Assembly (NCBI RefSeq): GCF_001677475.2
Contig: NZ_CP015229.1
Length of the DNA stretch: 64,000 nt
Origin: Escherichia coli
GTDB taxonomy: Bacteria > Pseudomonadota > Gammaproteobacteria > Enterobacterales > Enterobacteriaceae
Direction: 5' to 3' (one strand)
The position numbers were made by a program, and so were the translations under genes. The notes under the pieces were generated by a model that ran no database searches, was not told the origin of the DNA, and worked only from the letters and a program-made list of their open reading frames with translations. Below, piece by piece: positions 21,267 through 50,457 of the stretch (its first letter is position 1; each line of letters begins with the position of its first letter).

Positions 21267-21294
21267 GCGTGTGGTCAGGTTACTGACCACACGC
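21267..21294. terminator. Hairpin between convergent slyB and slyA
   Basis: GCGTGTGGTCAG-GTTA-CTGACCACACGC 12-bp perfect stem. Confidence 0.45.
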
Positions 21295-21304
21295 CCCCTT
21301 CATT

Positions 21305-21745
21305 TCACCCTTTGGCCTGTAACTCAATGATATTATGCTCAAGTTTTGCGATGAGCGTAATCAGTTGTTCCAGTTCCTCTGCGGAGATGCCATGTAAGAT
21401 TTCCGCGCGGGTTTTGTTAATAACAGCTTCCATTTCGCTGATCAGTGGCTCTGCCTTTTCCGTCAGTTTAATACGTTTAGCCCGACGATCGCTGGCACAA
21501 GTTTGACGCGAAATTAACCCTTTTTCTTCCAGTTGGTCCAGAGTACGGACCAGTGATGGCTGCTCGATGCCAATCGCTTTTGCCAGTTGAATTTGCGACT
21601 GGTCTGGAGGTAACTGATGGATATTGTGTAACGTAACCCAATGGGTTTGTGTTAACTCCAGCGGTTTCAGGCGATGGTCTATCAGAGCACGCCATATGCG
21701 CACCAACCGTGCCAGATCAGAACCTAGTGGCGATTCCAATTTCAT
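21305..21745 (-). CDS. slyA: MarR-family transcriptional regulator SlyA
   Basis: 146-aa ORF (true start may lie 2 codons downstream); winged-helix MarR family. Confidence 0.88.
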
Positions 21746-21755
21746 CTCCTTATAA

Positions 21756-21767
21756 TTAGCTTGCTAA
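21756..21767 (-). promoter_or_regulatory. SlyA-type operator palindrome TTAGCAAGCTAA (read on minus strand)
   Basis: 12-bp sequence seen 11 bp upstream of slyA start codon; matches the published SlyA consensus as I recall it. Confidence 0.55.
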
Positions 21768-21939
21768 GATATTATGCGGCTTTTAGAATAGTGTGCAGCA
21801 ATTGTATTGCTAAAACAAATGTATTGCTGCATTTGGTTACCGTCAGACATATTTTTCAGAAATTGCGCGTAAATTTTTCGCACTTAAAGAATATTTATTA
21901 ATCTAACGCAATATATTCGGTCGTAAAGGAATCTACTTT

Positions 21940-22176
21940 GTGAAGTTTATGCTCAATGCAACAGGATTGCCCTTACAAGATCTGGTGTTCGGTGCGTCCG
22001 TCTATTTTCCTCCGTTTTTCAAAGCCTTCGCGTTTGGATTCGTCATCTGGCTTGTCGTACACCGCCTGCTTCGTGGCTGGATCTACGCCGGTGACATCTG
22101 GCATCCCTTGTTAATGGATTTATCGCTGTTTGCGATTTGCGTTTGCCTTGCTCTGGCAATACTGATTGCGTGGTAA
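21940..22176 (+). CDS. ydhI: Small membrane protein (DUF1656), AaeX-like
   Basis: 78 aa, two predicted transmembrane helices; first gene of ydhIJK. Confidence 0.75.
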
Positions 22177-22178
22177 CT

Positions 22179-23036
22179 ATGTCAATTAAAACAATTAAGT
22201 ATTTCTCAACAATTATTGTAGCGGTAGTTGCGGTTCTTGCCGGATGGTGGCTGTGGAATTATTACATGCAATCTCCGTGGACACGCGACGGGAAAATACG
22301 CGCAGAACAGGTTTCTATCACCCCACAGGTGTCGGGACGTATTGTTGAGCTGAATATAAAAGACAACCAACTGGTTAACGCGGGGGATCTTCTGCTCACG
22401 ATCGATAAAACGCCCTTTCAGATCACCGAGCTGAATGCACAGGCTCAGCTGGCGAAAGCGCAATCTGACCTCGCAAAAGCCAATAACGAAGCGAATCGTC
22501 GTCGTCATCTCTCACAAAATTTTATTTCTGCCGAAGAACTCGATACCGCTAACCTCAATGTTAAAGCGATGCAGGCCAGTGTTGATGCCGCACAGGCGAC
22601 GCTGAAACAGGCACAATGGCAACTGGCGCAAACGGAAATTCGCGCCCCGGTGAGCGGATGGGTGACTAATCTTACTACCCGCATCGGCGATTACGCTGAC
22701 ACCGGGAAACCGCTGTTTGCTCTTGTCGATAGCCACTCGTTTTACGTCATTGGTTATTTTGAAGAAACCAAGTTGCGCCATATCCGCGAAGGTGCACCAG
22801 CACAAATAACCCTCTATAGTGATAACAAAACGTTACAGGGTCACGTTTCCAGTATCGGTCGGGCGATTTATGATCAGAGCGTTGAAAGTGACTCAAGCCT
22901 TATTCCGGATGTGAAACCTAACGTCCCCTGGGTTCGCCTCGCCCAACGCGTTCCGGTCCGCTTTGCGCTGGATAAAGTCCCAGGCGATGTCACGCTGGTG
23001 TCGGGCACCACCTGTAGCATTGCCGTAGGTCAATAA
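22179..23036 (+). CDS. ydhJ: HlyD-family membrane fusion protein (AaeA-like)
   Basis: ORF 22137-23036; ATG at 22179 three nt after ydhI stop; N-terminal TM anchor followed by coiled-coil. Confidence 0.8.
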
Positions 23037-25048
23037 TGAACGCATCGTCATGGTCCTTGCGCAATTTGCCCTGGTTCAGGGCCACGCTGGCGCAATGGCG
23101 TTATGCGTTACGCAATACCATTGCCATGTGTCTGGCGCTGACGGTTGCCTATTATTTGAATCTGGATGAGCCCTATTGGGCGATGACCTCGGCTGCAGTG
23201 GTTAGCTTTCCCACCGTTGGCGGTGTCATCAGCAAAAGCCTCGGACGCATCGCTGGCAGTTTACTGGGAGCCATAGCAGCACTGATTCTTGCCGGGCATA
23301 CGCTCAATGAGCCATGGTTTTTTCTATTGAGCATGTCGGCGTGGCTTGGCTTTTGTACCTGGGCCTGTGCGCACTTCACGAATAACGTCGCGTATGCATT
23401 TCAACTGGCGGGCTACACGGCTGCCATCATCGCCTTTCCGATGGTTAATATTACTGAGGCCAGCCAGCTGTGGGATATCGCTCAGGCGCGCGTTTGCGAG
23501 GTGATAGTCGGTATTTTGTGCGGCGGCATGATGATGATGATCCTGCCGAGCAGTTCCGATGCTACAGCCCTTTTAACCGCATTGAAAAACATGCACGCCC
23601 GATTACTGGAACATGCCAGTTTACTCTGGCAGCCTGAAACAACCGATGCCATTCGTGCAGCACATGAGGGGGTGATTGGGCAGATACTGACCATGAATTT
23701 GCTGCGTATCCAGGCTTTCTGGAGCCACTATCGTTTTCGCCAGCAAAACGCGCGCCTTAATGCGCTACTCCACCAGCAATTACGTATGACCAGTGTCATC
23801 TCCAGCCTGCGACGTATGTTGCTCAACTGGCCCTCACCGCCAGGTGCAACACGAGAAATTCTCGAACAGTTGCTGACGGCGCTCGCCAGTTCGCAAACAG
23901 ATGTTTACACCGTCGCACGTATTATCGCCCCGCTACGCCCGACCAACGTCGCCGACTACCGGCACGTCGCCTTCTGGCAGCGACTACGTTATTTTTGCCG
24001 CCTTTATCTGCAAAGTAGTCAGGAATTACATCGTCTGCAAAGCGGTGTGGATGATCATACCAGACTCCCACGGACATCCGGCCTGGCTCGTCATACCGAT
24101 AACGCCGAAGCTATGTGGAGCGGACTGCGTACATTTTGTACGTTGATGATGATTGGCACATGGAGTATTGCTTCGCAATGGGATGCCGGTGCCAATGCAT
24201 TAACGCTGGCAGCAATTAGCTGCGTACTCTACTCCGCCGTCGCAGCTCCATTTAAGTCGTTGTCACTGCTGATGCGCACGCTGGTGTTACTTTCGCTATT
24301 CAGCTTTGTGGTCAAATTTGGCCTGATGGTCCAGATTACCGATCTGTGGCAATTTTTACTGTTTCTCTTTCCACTGCTTGCGACAATGCAGCTTCTTAAA
24401 TTGCAGATGCCCAAATTTGCCGCATTGTGGGGGCAACTGATTGTTTTTATGGGTTCGTTTATCGCTGTCACTAATCCCCCGATGTATGATTTTGCTGATT
24501 TTCTTAACGATAATCTGGCAAAAATCGTTGGCGTTGCGCTGGCGTGGTTAGCGTTCGCCATTCTGCGTCCAGGATCGGATGCTCGTAAAAGTCGCCGTCA
24601 TATTCGCGCGCTGCGCCGGGATTTTGTCGATCAACTAAGCCGCCATCCATCACTGAGTGAAAGCGAATTTGAATCACTCACTTATCATCACGTCAGTCAG
24701 TTGAGTAACAGCCAGGATGCGCTGGCTCGCCGTTGGTTATTACGCTGGGGTGTAGTGCTGCTGAACTGTTCTCATGTTGTCTGGCAATTGCGCGACTGGG
24801 AATCGCGTTCCGATCCGTTATCGCGAGTACGGGATAACTGTATTTCACTGTTGCGCGGAGTGATGAGTGAGCGTGGCGTTCAGCAAAAATCACTGGCGGC
24901 CACACTTGAAGAATTACAGCGAATTTGCGACAGCCTTGCCCGTCATCATCAACCTGCCGCCCGTGAGCTGGCGGCAATTGTCTGGCGGCTGTACTGCTCG
25001 CTTTCGCAACTTGAGCAAGCACAACCGCAAGGTACGCTGGCCTCTTAA
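23036..25048 (+). CDS. ydhK: FUSC-family (AaeB-like) efflux transporter
   Basis: 670 aa; two hydrophobic domains separated by a cytoplasmic domain; start overlaps ydhJ stop. Confidence 0.8.
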
Positions 25049-26835: not shown

Positions 26836-27031
26836 TTCGCCCTCCTCAGATAAGTTTTACTCTAAATAATTCGAGTTGCAGGAAGGCGACGAGTGAATGA
26901 ATCCCCTGGAGCTTACTAAAGTAAGTGACTGGGGTGAGTGAACGTGGTCGCAGCACATGCAACTTGAAGTATGACGAGTGTATTACCACTATTGAAGCTC
27001 TTAATACCCAAAGTAGCAACTTTGCTTGCAC

Positions 27032-33257: not shown

Positions 33258-33321
33258 ATTAGACGTCAACTAGTTTTGCCGACTCGCGCCAACTATACTG
33301 GCCGCACCCTTCAGGGCGACA

Positions 33322-34077
33322 TCAAGTCGCGCTTGTTACTGCCTTCGCTGTCTTTTTCCTGTAGCTTTCCCCTTTCAGTTCGAACATATATCCGTGATGG
33401 ATCAGCCTGTCTGCCGCAGCCACCGCCATAGTCTCATCCACGAAGATGCTGCCCCACATGCTGAACGGATGGTTACTGGTTATCACCAGGCTCCCACGTT
33501 CATAGCGATGCGCTATTAACTCGAACAGCACACCCGTTTCGGCACTATCGCGTTTGACATAGCCAAGATCATCCACCACTATCACCCGGTAGCGATCCAG
33601 TTTCAGTAGCAGCTCATTCAGTTTCAACTGAGCTCTGGCTTTACGTAGTTCCTGCAACAGCTCTCCTGCGCTGTAGAACCGGGCCCGGTAGCCCTGACCT
33701 ACTACGCCATCCACGATCGCTGCCGCCAGATGGCTTTTCCCCAACCCGCTGGCTCCGAACAGCAGAACGTTTTCTCCTGCATCAACCCAGTCTGTCGTTT
33801 CACAGAGTTGCCGGAACTGAGCTCCATTCAGTTCCGGCACCTGACTGAAGTCGTATTCGCTCAGCGTTTTGGCAACTGGCAACCGGGCCTCCTTTTTATA
33901 ACGACGCAGTTTTTCACTCTCGCGCCACAGGAGTTCTTCATTGCATAGCGTCAGAAGATAGCGCGATGGTGTCCAGCCTTCTGCCAGCGCTCGTTTTTCC
34001 AGAGCGTGCCATTCAGCTCCAACTCGTGTCAGGCGTAGTTTACGCAGGCTATGTTCAAGGTGATGGATATTGCTCAC
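33322..34077 (-). CDS. istB: IS21-family helper ATPase IstB
   Basis: 251 aa; Walker A GASGLGKSHLA and Walker B VIVVDDLGY; overlaps istA by 4 nt. Confidence 0.88.
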   Translation of the reverse strand: MSNIHHLEHSLRKLRLTRVGAEWHALEKRALAEGWTPSRYLLTLCNEELLWRESEKLRRYKKEARLPVAKTLSEYDFSQVPELNGAQFRQLCETTDWVDAGENVLLFGASGLGKSHLAAAIVDGVVGQGYRARFYSAGELLQELRKARAQLKLNELLLKLDRYRVIVVDDLGYVKRDSAETGVLFELIAHRYERGSLVITSNHPFSMWGSIFVDETMAVAAADRLIHHGYMFELKGESYRKKTAKAVTSAT

Positions 34078-35573
34078 TGCGAACCTCCCTTGCCACGCAG
34101 TAGTTGCTCATAACTGCTCAGGTTATGCTGTATCACATTGACTACCGGCAACGCCTTTTCTTTTATACCCAGGAAGCGCATCAGCCGGTGCAGATCCACG
34201 TTTCCCGGGGTATTCAGCATCTGCTCCATACCTTTTGCCACGACTGAGATATCGTCGTATCCTGCAGCCAGTTTCAGGGCATGTACCATCAGCCTTCCTG
34301 CCATATCGGGCTCCAGATGATTACATAAGCGACGCCACAGCCTCCGCCATTCATCGTCCGGCAGGATGTCATTTCTCAGCGTTGCATGGCAGAACGCACC
34401 GGGCTTTTTTGCCAGACTGTCGATCACATGTCGGAAGTCGATACGACGGGCCCGCGTCTTCCCTTTTTCTGGTCTGACGCGAGGGCAGCTCATGACCTCG
34501 CTGCTGCCAACGTAACAGCTCAGACGATCGTCCCATAACCTGACCCGTAACAGTTGACCTACAAGCCGGGAAGGTACGCTGTAGACGACGTGCTTCACAT
34601 TGATGGTACTGCTGCGACTAACCCTCACAGTCAGCTCATCATAGTCAGCACTGCGACGAAGCGGCAGCGGTTTCAGATGAAGACGTTCTTCCTTGACCAG
34701 ATCCTGATTGTTACGGTTGTGCCGCATAACCTGCTGAGTGATGAAGGCCTGATATTCTTCTATGGTGCTGAAGTCGTTACTGCCCCGCAGTATCAGCGCC
34801 TGACAGATACGCCTTTTCAGATGTCCGTGGGCACTTTCAACCGAGCCATTTTCGTGGCCCCGACCGGCATTATTGTGTACGCCCTGCATTCCGTAGTGCT
34901 GACAGAGAGTAGCATAACGCTCAGTCAGCTCGCGGCGTCCATCTTCGCCCTGTTGTTTCCATGCTGCCCTCAGGCTGTCCGTTTTATGTTCTACCGGCAC
35001 TCCGCCCAGTTGTCCGAGGGCTTCCTGCAGGCCTTCAGCCAGAGCAGAGAAGCTCTCACCACCCAGAACAACCCGCATCCAGCTCCAGTGGCTCCATTCC
35101 AGACGGAAGTGATACAACTTATGCGCCAACAACTTACCGGCGATGGTGACAACTACACCTTTCAGTTCAGTAAAGTCCGACAGGCCTCGCAGGCCGGGCT
35201 GATGTTGCTGGCGGAACATGACCTCCTGCTCTGTACCATACTGTAGTTTCCATTCGCGAACCCGCCGTTGCATTGTTCTTCGAAGGCTGTTGGGGTACTG
35301 GCCGGGATATTTATCCTGTAGCATCTCCAGTAGAGTTGTTGGTGTCAGAGCCGGCCTCTCTTTCAACAGAGGAACAAGCATGCTGTCCCACACAGCTTCC
35401 AGAGGATCTTTGCGTGTGCGCCAGTGCCGAACACTGTTTTTTGCCCACTCTCCTTTTTCGATCCGACGACCAGAACGGACTGAGATACCAGCCTTCATGG
35501 CCGAGATATGCTGAGTTATACCTTTCTTACGCTGAGTCATATAGTAACTGACCTGAGAAGTATTGAGCGTCAC
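34074..35573 (-). CDS. istA: IS21-family transposase IstA
   Basis: 499 aa; N-terminal HTH region and central DDE integrase-like domain; gene order istA then istB typical of IS21 family. Confidence 0.85.
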   Translation of the reverse strand: MTLNTSQVSYYMTQRKKGITQHISAMKAGISVRSGRRIEKGEWAKNSVRHWRTRKDPLEAVWDSMLVPLLKERPALTPTTLLEMLQDKYPGQYPNSLRRTMQRRVREWKLQYGTEQEVMFRQQHQPGLRGLSDFTELKGVVVTIAGKLLAHKLYHFRLEWSHWSWMRVVLGGESFSALAEGLQEALGQLGGVPVEHKTDSLRAAWKQQGEDGRRELTERYATLCQHYGMQGVHNNAGRGHENGSVESAHGHLKRRICQALILRGSNDFSTIEEYQAFITQQVMRHNRNNQDLVKEERLHLKPLPLRRSADYDELTVRVSRSSTINVKHVVYSVPSRLVGQLLRVRLWDDRLSCYVGSSEVMSCPRVRPEKGKTRARRIDFRHVIDSLAKKPGAFCHATLRNDILPDDEWRRLWRRLCNHLEPDMAGRLMVHALKLAAGYDDISVVAKGMEQMLNTPGNVDLHRLMRFLGIKEKALPVVNVIQHNLSSYEQLLRGKGGSQ

Positions 35574-35666
35574 GCCATTTCCTGTTGGATCATGTAAATG
35601 ACACTCAGGTTACAAAACCGGCCAGAATAATCGGCGCCAGGCGGACTGAGTTATTGTCGTCTCATA

Positions 35667-40741: not shown

Positions 40742-40906
40742 GCCTTATCTCCACCTCTTCGCGTCATTACGCGATATTCATTAAAGTGGCGAAAGCATGA
40801 CAGCAATCACAAAAAAATGAAAATAACAAAAAGAGAAAACACTTTTGCCATTTTGCTAACAAACAGGAAAGAGAGGCGAGGGAGAACGCGCTCCCTCGAG
40901 AGGAAA

Positions 40907-40996
40907 TCAGTGCAGCGCGGCAGTCAAACCCACGGCCACGATCAAACCGAGGACGATAATCGTTGTTACCAGTGAAAATTTAAGGTCGGTGCTCAT
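40907..40996 (-). CDS. ynhF: Small hydrophobic protein (29 aa)
   Basis: Reverse complement encodes MSTDLKFSLVTTIIVLGLIVAVGLTAALH; followed on minus strand by hairpin CGAGGGAG-N6-CTCCCTCG (40877-40898). Confidence 0.6.
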   Translation of the reverse strand: MSTDLKFSLVTTIIVLGLIVAVGLTAALH

Positions 40997-41234
40997 CAAG
41001 TTTTCTCCTTTTTTATTACCACACAAAAAGTGATATTACGCATTTTTACACACTGTGATGAAAAAATCTCCCGTCATTTATAATGATAAGTGTTTTTACC
41101 ACTTCCCCTTTTCGTCAAGATCGGCCAAAATTCCACGCTTACACTATTTGCGTACTGGCCATTGACCCCTTCCTGACGCTCCGTGTCGTTTTTCCGGCGT
41201 ACCGCAACACTTTTGTTGTGCGTAAGGTGTGTAA

Positions 41235-41250
41235 AGGCAAACGTTTACCT
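41235..41250. promoter_or_regulatory. Putative PurR box (AGGCAAACGTTTACCT) in purR leader
   Basis: Core GCAAACGTTTAC resembles the PurR operator consensus ACGCAAACGTTTGCGT. Confidence 0.45.
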
Positions 41251-41294
41251 TGCGATTTTGCAGGAGCTGAAGTTAGGGTCTGGAGTGAAATGGA

Positions 41295-49886: not shown

Positions 49887-49963
49887 GCGTTCATAGCTCA
49901 GTTGGTTAGAGCACCACCTTGACATGGTGGGGGTCGTTGGTTCGAGTCCAATTGAACGCACCA
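49887..49963 (+). tRNA. valV: tRNA-Val (anticodon GAC)
   Basis: 77-nt cloverleaf with anticodon loop CTTGACATG, T-loop GGTTCGAGTCC, encoded CCA end. Confidence 0.9.
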
Positions 49964-49967
49964 TCCT

Positions 49968-50044
49968 GCGTCCGTAGCTCAGTTGGTTAGAGCACCACCT
50001 TGACATGGTGGGGGTCGGTGGTTCGAGTCCACTCGGACGCACCA
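49968..50044 (+). tRNA. valW: tRNA-Val (anticodon GAC), tandem second copy
   Basis: 77 nt, 4-nt spacer after valV; differs from valV at a few acceptor and T-stem positions; CCA encoded. Confidence 0.9.
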
Positions 50045-50151
50045 GATTTTCTTAATCTGGTCTTCTCCTTTTTCCCTCTGTTTCTTCTCTGTATCCAATA
50101 CGTTAAAAGATTTACACTGTCTTCGTATGCGTTATCAGAAGGAGAATCGCT

Positions 50152-50457
50152 ATGGCAACTTTGTTACAACTTCATTTTGCTTTTAATGGCCCATTTGGCG
50201 ACGCAATGGCTGAGCAGCTTAAACCACTTGCTGAGTCGATTAATCAGGAACCTGGTTTTCTGTGGAAGGTATGGACAGAAAGTGAAAAGAACCACGAAGC
50301 CGGTGGGATCTACCTTTTTACTGATGAAAAAAGCGCCCTTGCCTATCTGGAAAAACATACTGCCCGACTGAAAAATCTCGGCGTTGAGGAAGTTGTCGCC
50401 AAAGTTTTCGATGTCAATGAGCCACTTAGTCAAATCAATCAGGCAAAACTCGCCTGA
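50152..50457 (+). CDS. ydhR: Small dimeric alpha/beta-barrel (monooxygenase-like) protein
   Basis: 101-aa ORF. Confidence 0.8.

Follow-up and report, generated by a model that had tools for sequence, protein, structure and literature searches.

The slyA-ydhIJK locus

The window analysed here is a stretch of 64,000 nucleotides (64 kb) from Escherichia coli (NCBI RefSeq assembly GCF_001677475.2, contig NZ_CP015229.1), and the motif search with TTAGCAAGCTAA, the open reading frames (ORFs) and the coordinates given below are all within it. Our subject is the MarR-family regulator gene slyA, the divergently transcribed operon ydhIJK, and the SlyA binding site in the spacer that separates them. The RefSeq annotation, which agrees with E. 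coli K-12, identifies the region as the slyB-slyA/ydhIJK-sodC locus of E. coli or Shigella. The genes of interest are as follows.

21305..21739, minus strand: slyA, MarR-family regulator of 144 aa with a TTG start at 21739..21737 (ORF and RefSeq)
21940..22176, plus strand: ydhI, small DUF1656 membrane protein, AaeX-like, with a GTG start (Pfam DUF1656)
22179..23036, plus strand: ydhJ, HlyD-type periplasmic adaptor, AaeA-like (Pfam HlyD_3 and HlyD_D23)
23036..25048, plus strand: ydhK, FUSC-family inner-membrane transporter, AaeB-like (Pfam FUSC, 464.5 bits)

SlyA matches the NCBIfam SlyA equivalog NF002926 over residues 1-143 with 278.7 bits (cut-off 120), which makes it a member of that curated family, and it contains a Pfam MarR domain (60.1 bits). 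The Pfam matches of YdhI, YdhJ and YdhK all exceed the gathering scores. The original prediction, made earlier on the same DNA, had described the divergent cluster as DUF1656, HlyD-type and FUSC genes, and both Pfam and RefSeq agree.

The locus region was matched in 5,425 of 5,426 complete E. coli genomes, and the window as a whole has about 98.7-98.9% identity to the best of the 5,426. The 200-bp spacer between slyA and ydhI (21740-21939) is the K-12 sequence base for base, and of the 5,423 E. coli genomes in which the spacer was matched, 5,405 have it at 99% identity or more. SlyA (144 of 144 residues) and YdhI show no differences from the K-12 proteins; YdhJ has 1 substitution and YdhK has 6 amino-acid substitutions. 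The spacer is AT-rich, with a G+C content of 28-34% vs. roughly 48-52% in the flanking genes.

The length of the spacer depends on the start codon of slyA. RefSeq places the start at the TTG at 21739, giving 144 aa here as in K-12. An ATG lies slightly upstream at 21745, and it was from this codon that the original prediction had counted 11 bp between the SlyA site and slyA and 194 bp of sequence shared with ydhIJK. The Shine-Dalgarno sequence of slyA is placed relative to the two codons as follows.

21746..21751, minus strand: Shine-Dalgarno sequence AAGGAG of slyA, adjoining the ATG at 21745 and 6 nt from the TTG

Cedecea (L043) carries a 1-bp deletion by which the upstream ATG is frameshifted and runs into a stop; the deletion also gives a new ATG exactly at the TTG position. 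Use of the UUG start has been demonstrated by experiment, and it limits SlyA levels (McVicker 2011, PMC3173223). We rejected the ATG at 21745 as the slyA start based on the RefSeq annotation, the Shine-Dalgarno spacing, the Cedecea deletion and this experimental work. Counted from the TTG at 21739, the distance from the end of the site to slyA is 16 bp, and the spacer measures 200 bp. The locus of Cedecea sulfonylureivorans (L043, 4490-4515) is a natural TTG to ATG variant of slyA, which should raise SlyA translation (compare the AUG replacement experiment in PMC3173223).

The SlyA operator

SlyA operators were identified by the consensus TTAGCAAGCTAA (Stapleton) or by TTAN6TAA (Haider). The spacer contains the following matches to the 12-bp consensus.

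21756..21767, minus strand: high-affinity SlyA consensus site TTAGCAAGCTAA, a 12/12 match; the plus strand reads TTAGCTTGCTAA
21802..21813, minus strand (plus strand TTGTATTGCTAA): secondary SlyA-like site, 9/12, at +6 to +17 of the ydhI transcript; repeat D2
21895..21906, plus strand: secondary SlyA-like site TTATTAATCTAA, 9/12, equal to the TTAGATTAATAA of Curran (PMC5797941, Table 3)

The site at 21756-21767 matches the consensus at every position and also fits TTAN6TAA. It is the sole exact copy of TTAGCAAGCTAA in the 64 kb; the mean in shuffled sequence is 0.02, and only 2 of 100 dinucleotide-preserving shuffles contain any copy. Sites matching at 9 or more of the 12 positions are concentrated in the spacer, with three found vs. 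0.09 expected from their density in the window (31 such sites), and the spacer also holds two of the 20 TTAN6TAA sites in the window. The original prediction had placed the 12-mer on the minus strand at 21756-21767, between slyA and the divergent ydhIJK, and its position and genes are as described. It had also called the site a palindrome, which does not hold in the strict sense. The site is a 5+2+5 inverted repeat with 5-bp arms (TTAGC/GCTAA) and a non-symmetric AA centre.

This DNA is known to bind SlyA. Table 3 of Curran 2017 (PMC5797941) lists TTAGCAAGCTAA as the PslyA site, with its centre 22 bp upstream of slyA, and lists TTAGATTAATAA as a second site centred 161 bp upstream of slyA, which corresponds to 21895-21906 of the window. 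In gel shifts, SlyA bound the 200-bp slyA-ydhI fragment, with an apparent Kd of about 50-100 nM for these promoters (PMC5797941). The probe was the whole 200-bp fragment, not the 12-mer alone, and is identical to 21740-21939 of the window. The slyA promoter region also served as the positive control for SlyA binding in PMC3173223.

Conservation across Enterobacteriaceae

A scan of one genome per species yielded 80 Enterobacteriaceae loci, and 75 distinct intergenic sequences were aligned. The exact 12-mer is found at the same position in 78 of the 80 species, and the remaining two species have one mismatch. The distance from the 12-mer to the slyA start codon is 16 bp in 77 species and 15 bp in Cedecea. 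Every column from 21728 to 21768, a range that includes the slyA Shine-Dalgarno sequence, is at least 95% conserved. More broadly, the slyA-proximal block is largely conserved to about 21830 and the sequence between 21830 and 21925 has diverged, a pattern that agrees with the description of the spacer by Will 2019 (PMC6401476). The operator is thus conserved by position beyond neutral expectation, in that the 12-mer is fixed while 21830-21925 of the same spacer has diverged. The secondary 9/12 sites are lineage-specific and poorly conserved between genera, and the left part of 21802-21813 is variable outside Escherichia.

Two species retain the operator and have lost the pump. Intestinirhabdus alba (L038) has no ydhIJK in the 4.5 kb upstream of slyA, and the 12-mer is kept along with a proximal block of roughly 100 bp. 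In Kosakonia oryziphila (L064), ydhIJK is reduced to remnants and the 12-mer is kept. Since the 12-mer persists without ydhIJK, selection on the site is tied mainly to slyA and not to the pump.

The ydhI promoter

The operator overlaps the core promoter of the divergent operon, with the -35 hexamer of ydhI lying inside the SlyA site.

21761..21766, plus strand: ydhI -35 hexamer TTGCTA, inside the SlyA site (promoter scan, TTGCTA-17-TAGAAT)
21784..21789, plus strand: ydhI -10 hexamer TAGAAT (promoter scan and position-weight scan)
21797, plus strand: ydhI transcription start, giving a 143-nt leader (table of Kim 2012, PMC3415461 supplement)

In K-12, the transcription start was mapped 143 nt upstream of ydhI with 12 reads, and the sequence upstream of it is given as ...TTAGCTTGCTAAGATATTATGCGGCTTTTAGAATAGTGTGCA (Kim 2012, PMC3415461 supplement). 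TTGCTA-17-TAGAAT (21761-21789) is the only promoter returned by the consensus scan, has the top position-weight score on the plus strand, and coincides with this mapped start. The -35 hexamer and the 17-bp promoter spacer are invariant in all 75 aligned sequences. The -10 hexamer is TAGAAT in 67 of them, and the other eight keep TA...T. The centre of the SlyA site is at about -35.5 relative to the ydhI start. With the -35 hexamer inside the site, bound SlyA should therefore occlude the ydhI promoter. The overlap between the perfect E. coli site and the -35 of this mapped promoter is new here.

In Salmonella, Klebsiella and Enterobacter, a second, weaker plus-strand promoter is predicted at a distance of about 95-100 bp from slyA. 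The 9/12 site of Salmonella lies at this second predicted promoter, and its equivalent in E. coli matches at only 6/12 positions. Thus, ydhI may have two promoters that are used differently between genera. The table of Kim 2012 (PMC3415461 supplement) also contains a second weak start of 9 reads at window position 21963, 23 nt inside ydhI, which is assigned there to ydhJ.

Two repeats are present around the ydhI start. A perfect 9-bp inverted repeat (TGCAGCAAT/ATTGCTGCA, 20-nt gap) spans 21794-21831 and is Escherichia-specific in our alignment. A 13-nt direct repeat, CAAWTGTATTGCT, occurs with a 17-bp spacing and, together with the inverted repeat, is located at the ydhI start and over a candidate slyA -35 hexamer described below. 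We rejected an RNA element in the spacer or leader, as Rfam gave only sub-threshold chance matches to eukaryotic and plastid families. A structured ydhI leader was also rejected, with the 164 nt from the ydhI start folding no better than shuffled sequences (z = 0.42).

Candidate slyA promoters

No mapped slyA start is present in the tables of Kim 2012 (PMC3415461 supplement), including by sequence search. The supplement of a Cappable-seq study has no coordinates in range, and a 2026 paper on bidirectional promoters names neither slyA nor ydhI. A fragment beginning at 21846 is sufficient for slyA expression, judging from the plasmid of Curran (PMC5797941). Two candidate promoters are predicted on the minus strand.

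21776..21771, minus strand: candidate proximal slyA -10 hexamer (CATAAT here), predicted, which would put the start inside the SlyA site
21813..21808 and 21790..21785, minus strand: candidate slyA promoter, predicted, with -35 TTAGCA, a 17-bp spacer and -10 TATTCT

The proximal -10 hexamer is a perfect TATAAT in 55 of the 75 sequences, and its -35 is poor. The other candidate, TTAGCA-17-TATTCT, scores at least 8 bits in 72 of the 75 and would put the SlyA site at about +11 to +22. Its -35 is variable (TTGGCA, TTGAGA, TTGGGA, TTGGTA and others), most of the common variants keeping TTG..A, and the block is kept in I. alba, which is without ydhIJK. The SlyA site lies at or downstream of either candidate start, consistent with autoregulation of slyA.

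The -10 hexamers of the two strands, TAGAAT (plus, 21784-21789) and TATTCT (minus, 21790..21785), overlap with a 1-bp offset. Because the TTAGCA-17-TATTCT block survives the loss of ydhIJK, and because the -35 on the slyA strand varies while its TTG..A shape is mostly kept, slyA and ydhI might be driven by one symmetric bidirectional core promoter, with starts about 19 bp apart and a single SlyA site as the gate. We regard this as a possible but somewhat doubtful arrangement. Under it, the single invariant SlyA site would serve as the ydhI -35 and also block slyA early in its leader, and SlyA occupancy would pick the direction of RNA polymerase instead of simply switching off both genes. If true, such a core could bring mild activation or positive autoregulation in E. 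coli into line with the repression seen in Salmonella and Klebsiella.

Regulation of slyA and ydhIJK

The slyA-ydhIJK pair is very probably a MarR-type local regulator and a divergent AaeXAB-like pump that share one compact operator-promoter block. Control would be by occlusion and autorepression, with release by ligand. In this model, a SlyA dimer bound at TTAGCAAGCTAA (21756-21767) would exclude RNA polymerase from PydhI. The same site, 16 bp before the TTG and either on or immediately downstream of each plausible slyA start, would also throttle slyA. Aromatic carboxylates such as salicylate and benzoate would release SlyA and derepress both slyA and ydhIJK.

Work in related bacteria is consistent with repression of this kind. 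In vitro, Salmonella SlyA represses slyA 5.3-fold and ydhI about 19-fold, and salicylate relieves both (Will 2019, PMC6401476). When exposed to fusaric acid, Salmonella ydhIJK mutants show slower growth and slyA mutants improved growth (PMC6401476). RNA-seq in Salmonella agrees on the repression of ydhIJK, and the homology to AaeAB was noted in the same work (2025 mBio, PMC12506092). A Klebsiella preprint reports by proteomics that YdhJ increases 45- to over 100-fold on disruption of kvrA, the slyA orthologue, and the same preprint has SlyA directly repressing ydhIJK in E. coli. In E. coli K-12, the pair has been called SlyA-activated divergent operons, and the region was flagged as H-NS-bound (Curran 2017, PMC5797941). 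The proposal in the original prediction that SlyA controls both itself and an AaeXAB-like pump is borne out by the literature on the K-12 spacer, to which the spacer here is identical.

Several observations weigh against repression through the 12-mer. Overproduction of SlyA in K-12 raised ydhIJK 2.2-fold (PMC5797941) and a slyA deletion led to no significant change, the reverse of what simple repression predicts. The ydhI start that places the -35 inside the operator is supported by 12 reads in one dataset (PMC3415461). The two species without an intact ydhIJK still have the 12-mer. The salicylate-sensitive footprint at Salmonella ydhI is ascribed to a site of 75% identity near the ydhI -35, not to the 12/12 site (PMC6401476), and the only 9/12 site of the Salmonella subspecies is about 99 bp from slyA, on the weaker second predicted promoter. 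The direction of control in E. coli, up on overproduction, conflicts with the repression in Salmonella and Klebsiella.

The 12-mer could serve only the autoregulation of slyA, with ydhIJK controlled from a second promoter closer to ydhI, via weaker SlyA sites (21802-21813, 21895-21906, or one of the Salmonella type near 21832-21843). This would fit the persistence of the 12-mer in I. alba and K. oryziphila and of the roughly 100-bp block, read in I. alba, the Salmonella footprint, and the second plus-strand promoter predicted in Salmonella, Klebsiella and Enterobacter. We consider it unlikely, however. The only mapped ydhI start in E. coli uses the promoter with its -35 inside the 12-mer (PMC3415461), that promoter scores best and is the most conserved in all 75 sequences, the secondary sites are not conserved between genera, and the E. 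coli equivalent of the Salmonella-type site is 6/12 only. We infer that control of E. coli ydhI runs through the 12-mer rather than the 9/12 sites nearby, by occlusion of the -35. It is likewise improbable that the net effect of SlyA on E. coli ydhIJK is activation through the displacement of H-NS from the AT-rich leader, as at hlyE and fimB. The overproduction result, the H-NS flag on the region (PMC5797941), the low G+C content of the spacer relative to its flanks and the two extra SlyA-like sites within the 143-nt ydhI leader would fit such activation. The effect, however, is small and has been observed with multicopy slyA only. Occlusion is what the operator geometry predicts, strong repression is found both in Salmonella (about 19-fold in vitro) and in Klebsiella (45- to over 100-fold), and the Klebsiella preprint calls the E. 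coli operon directly SlyA-repressed. Since the spacer is AT-rich and flagged as H-NS-bound (PMC5797941), counter-silencing at high SlyA levels is plausible as an overlay on the control of ydhIJK.

That the 12-mer is a chance match without a regulatory role is hardly conceivable. When two mismatches are allowed, TTAGCAAGCTAA is no commoner in the window than in shuffled sequence (4 found vs. 5.12 expected), which would fit a chance match. An exact match, however, is expected only 0.02 times per window, and this one stays exact and in place in 78 of 80 species, in a spacer whose distal part has diverged. The conservation, together with the published binding of SlyA to the same DNA (PMC5797941), refutes a chance occurrence.

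Comparison with known systems

The closest system is slyA-ydhIJK of E. coli K-12, which has the same spacer, SlyA, YdhI and 12-mer, and in which YdhJ and YdhK differ by 1 and 6 residues, respectively. Salmonella Typhimurium has the same gene order, and Salmonella subspecies (L027, L033) carry the exact 12-mer, again 16 bp from slyA. The Salmonella spacer has diverged in its distal half, and its secondary SlyA-like sites differ from those of E. coli. The direction of ydhIJK control in Salmonella is also opposite to the E. coli overexpression result (PMC6401476 and PMC12506092 vs. PMC5797941). Klebsiella pneumoniae has the orthologous regulator KvrA beside ydhIJK, and the exact 12-mer is at the same position in Klebsiella species (L044, L049, L052, L055). 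The Klebsiella spacer is shorter than that of E. coli, and its distal part has diverged.

The ydhIJK operon has the architecture of aaeXAB, with the same three-gene order of DUF1656 protein, HlyD adaptor and FUSC transporter, divergent from a regulator gene. The regulators differ; aaeXAB has the LysR-type activator AaeR, and ydhIJK has the MarR-type SlyA. YdhI is 33% identical to AaeX over 51 aa, YdhJ is 40% identical to AaeA (E = 2e-67), and YdhK is 24% identical to AaeB (E = 1e-27). The best-matching equivalog models are those of AaeX, AaeA and AaeB. The scores are 21.4 bits vs. a cut-off of 82 for YdhI/AaeX, 241.3 vs. 400 for YdhJ/AaeA and 121.4 vs. 870 for YdhK/AaeB. All three proteins are below the cut-offs, which rules them out as true AaeXAB orthologues and makes them paralogues. 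The label AaeXAB-like used in the original prediction is therefore apt when read as paralogy. YdhIJK is a putative exporter of aromatic carboxylates, and in Salmonella it confers resistance to fusaric acid (PMC6401476).

The classical pairs and circuits of the family, i.e., MarR-marO, EmrR/MprA-emrAB and PecS-PecM, have a dimeric winged-helix repressor that binds a short inverted repeat over a promoter, regulates itself, and is released by aromatic acids. Unlike the regulators of classical MarR/efflux pairs, SlyA is also a genome-wide counter-silencer of H-NS, and it has repeatedly come unlinked from the pump (PMC6401476).

The SlyA site, its binding and the regulatory link between slyA and ydhIJK are already published, and no new biology therefore follows from the finding itself. 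The additions made here are modest. They are the overlap with the ydhI -35, a site that is near-invariant in 80 species regardless of the pump, and the opposite directions of ydhIJK control reported for E. coli vs. Salmonella and Klebsiella. In enteric bacteria, SlyA and its relatives RovA and KvrA act as master regulators of virulence and of genes gained by horizontal transfer, and the slyA-ydhIJK pair is regarded as the ancestral MarR-type circuit of the SlyA relatives.

Other features of the window

A terminator-like structure lies just downstream of slyA, in the gap that separates it from the convergent slyB.

21267..21294, minus strand: terminator-like hairpin 3' of slyA, with a 12-pair stem (8 G-C pairs) followed by a T-rich tail

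Compared with E. coli AF39 (L084), the window has two insertions. The first is a 2.4-kb insertion in lhr at 33258-35657, which splits the gene into ORFs of 1101 aa and 524 aa. The insertion contains two minus-strand ORFs, one of 499 aa with a Mu-transposase C-terminal domain and one of 251 aa matching IstB_IS21 (209 bits), and is probably an element of the IS21 family. A stretch of about 17 bp of the AF39 reference aligns on either side of the insertion and may be a target duplication. The second is a 120-bp insertion between ydhL and nemR at 26861-26980, an imperfect palindrome that we take to resemble an ERIC/IRU intergenic repeat.

Rfam matches at gathering level were found at 40904-41294 (minus strand) and 49887-50168. 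They are the small RNA STnc550 (396 bits), two adjacent tRNA genes, and the antisense family HPnc0260. The HPnc0260 match overlaps the second of the two adjacent tRNA genes.

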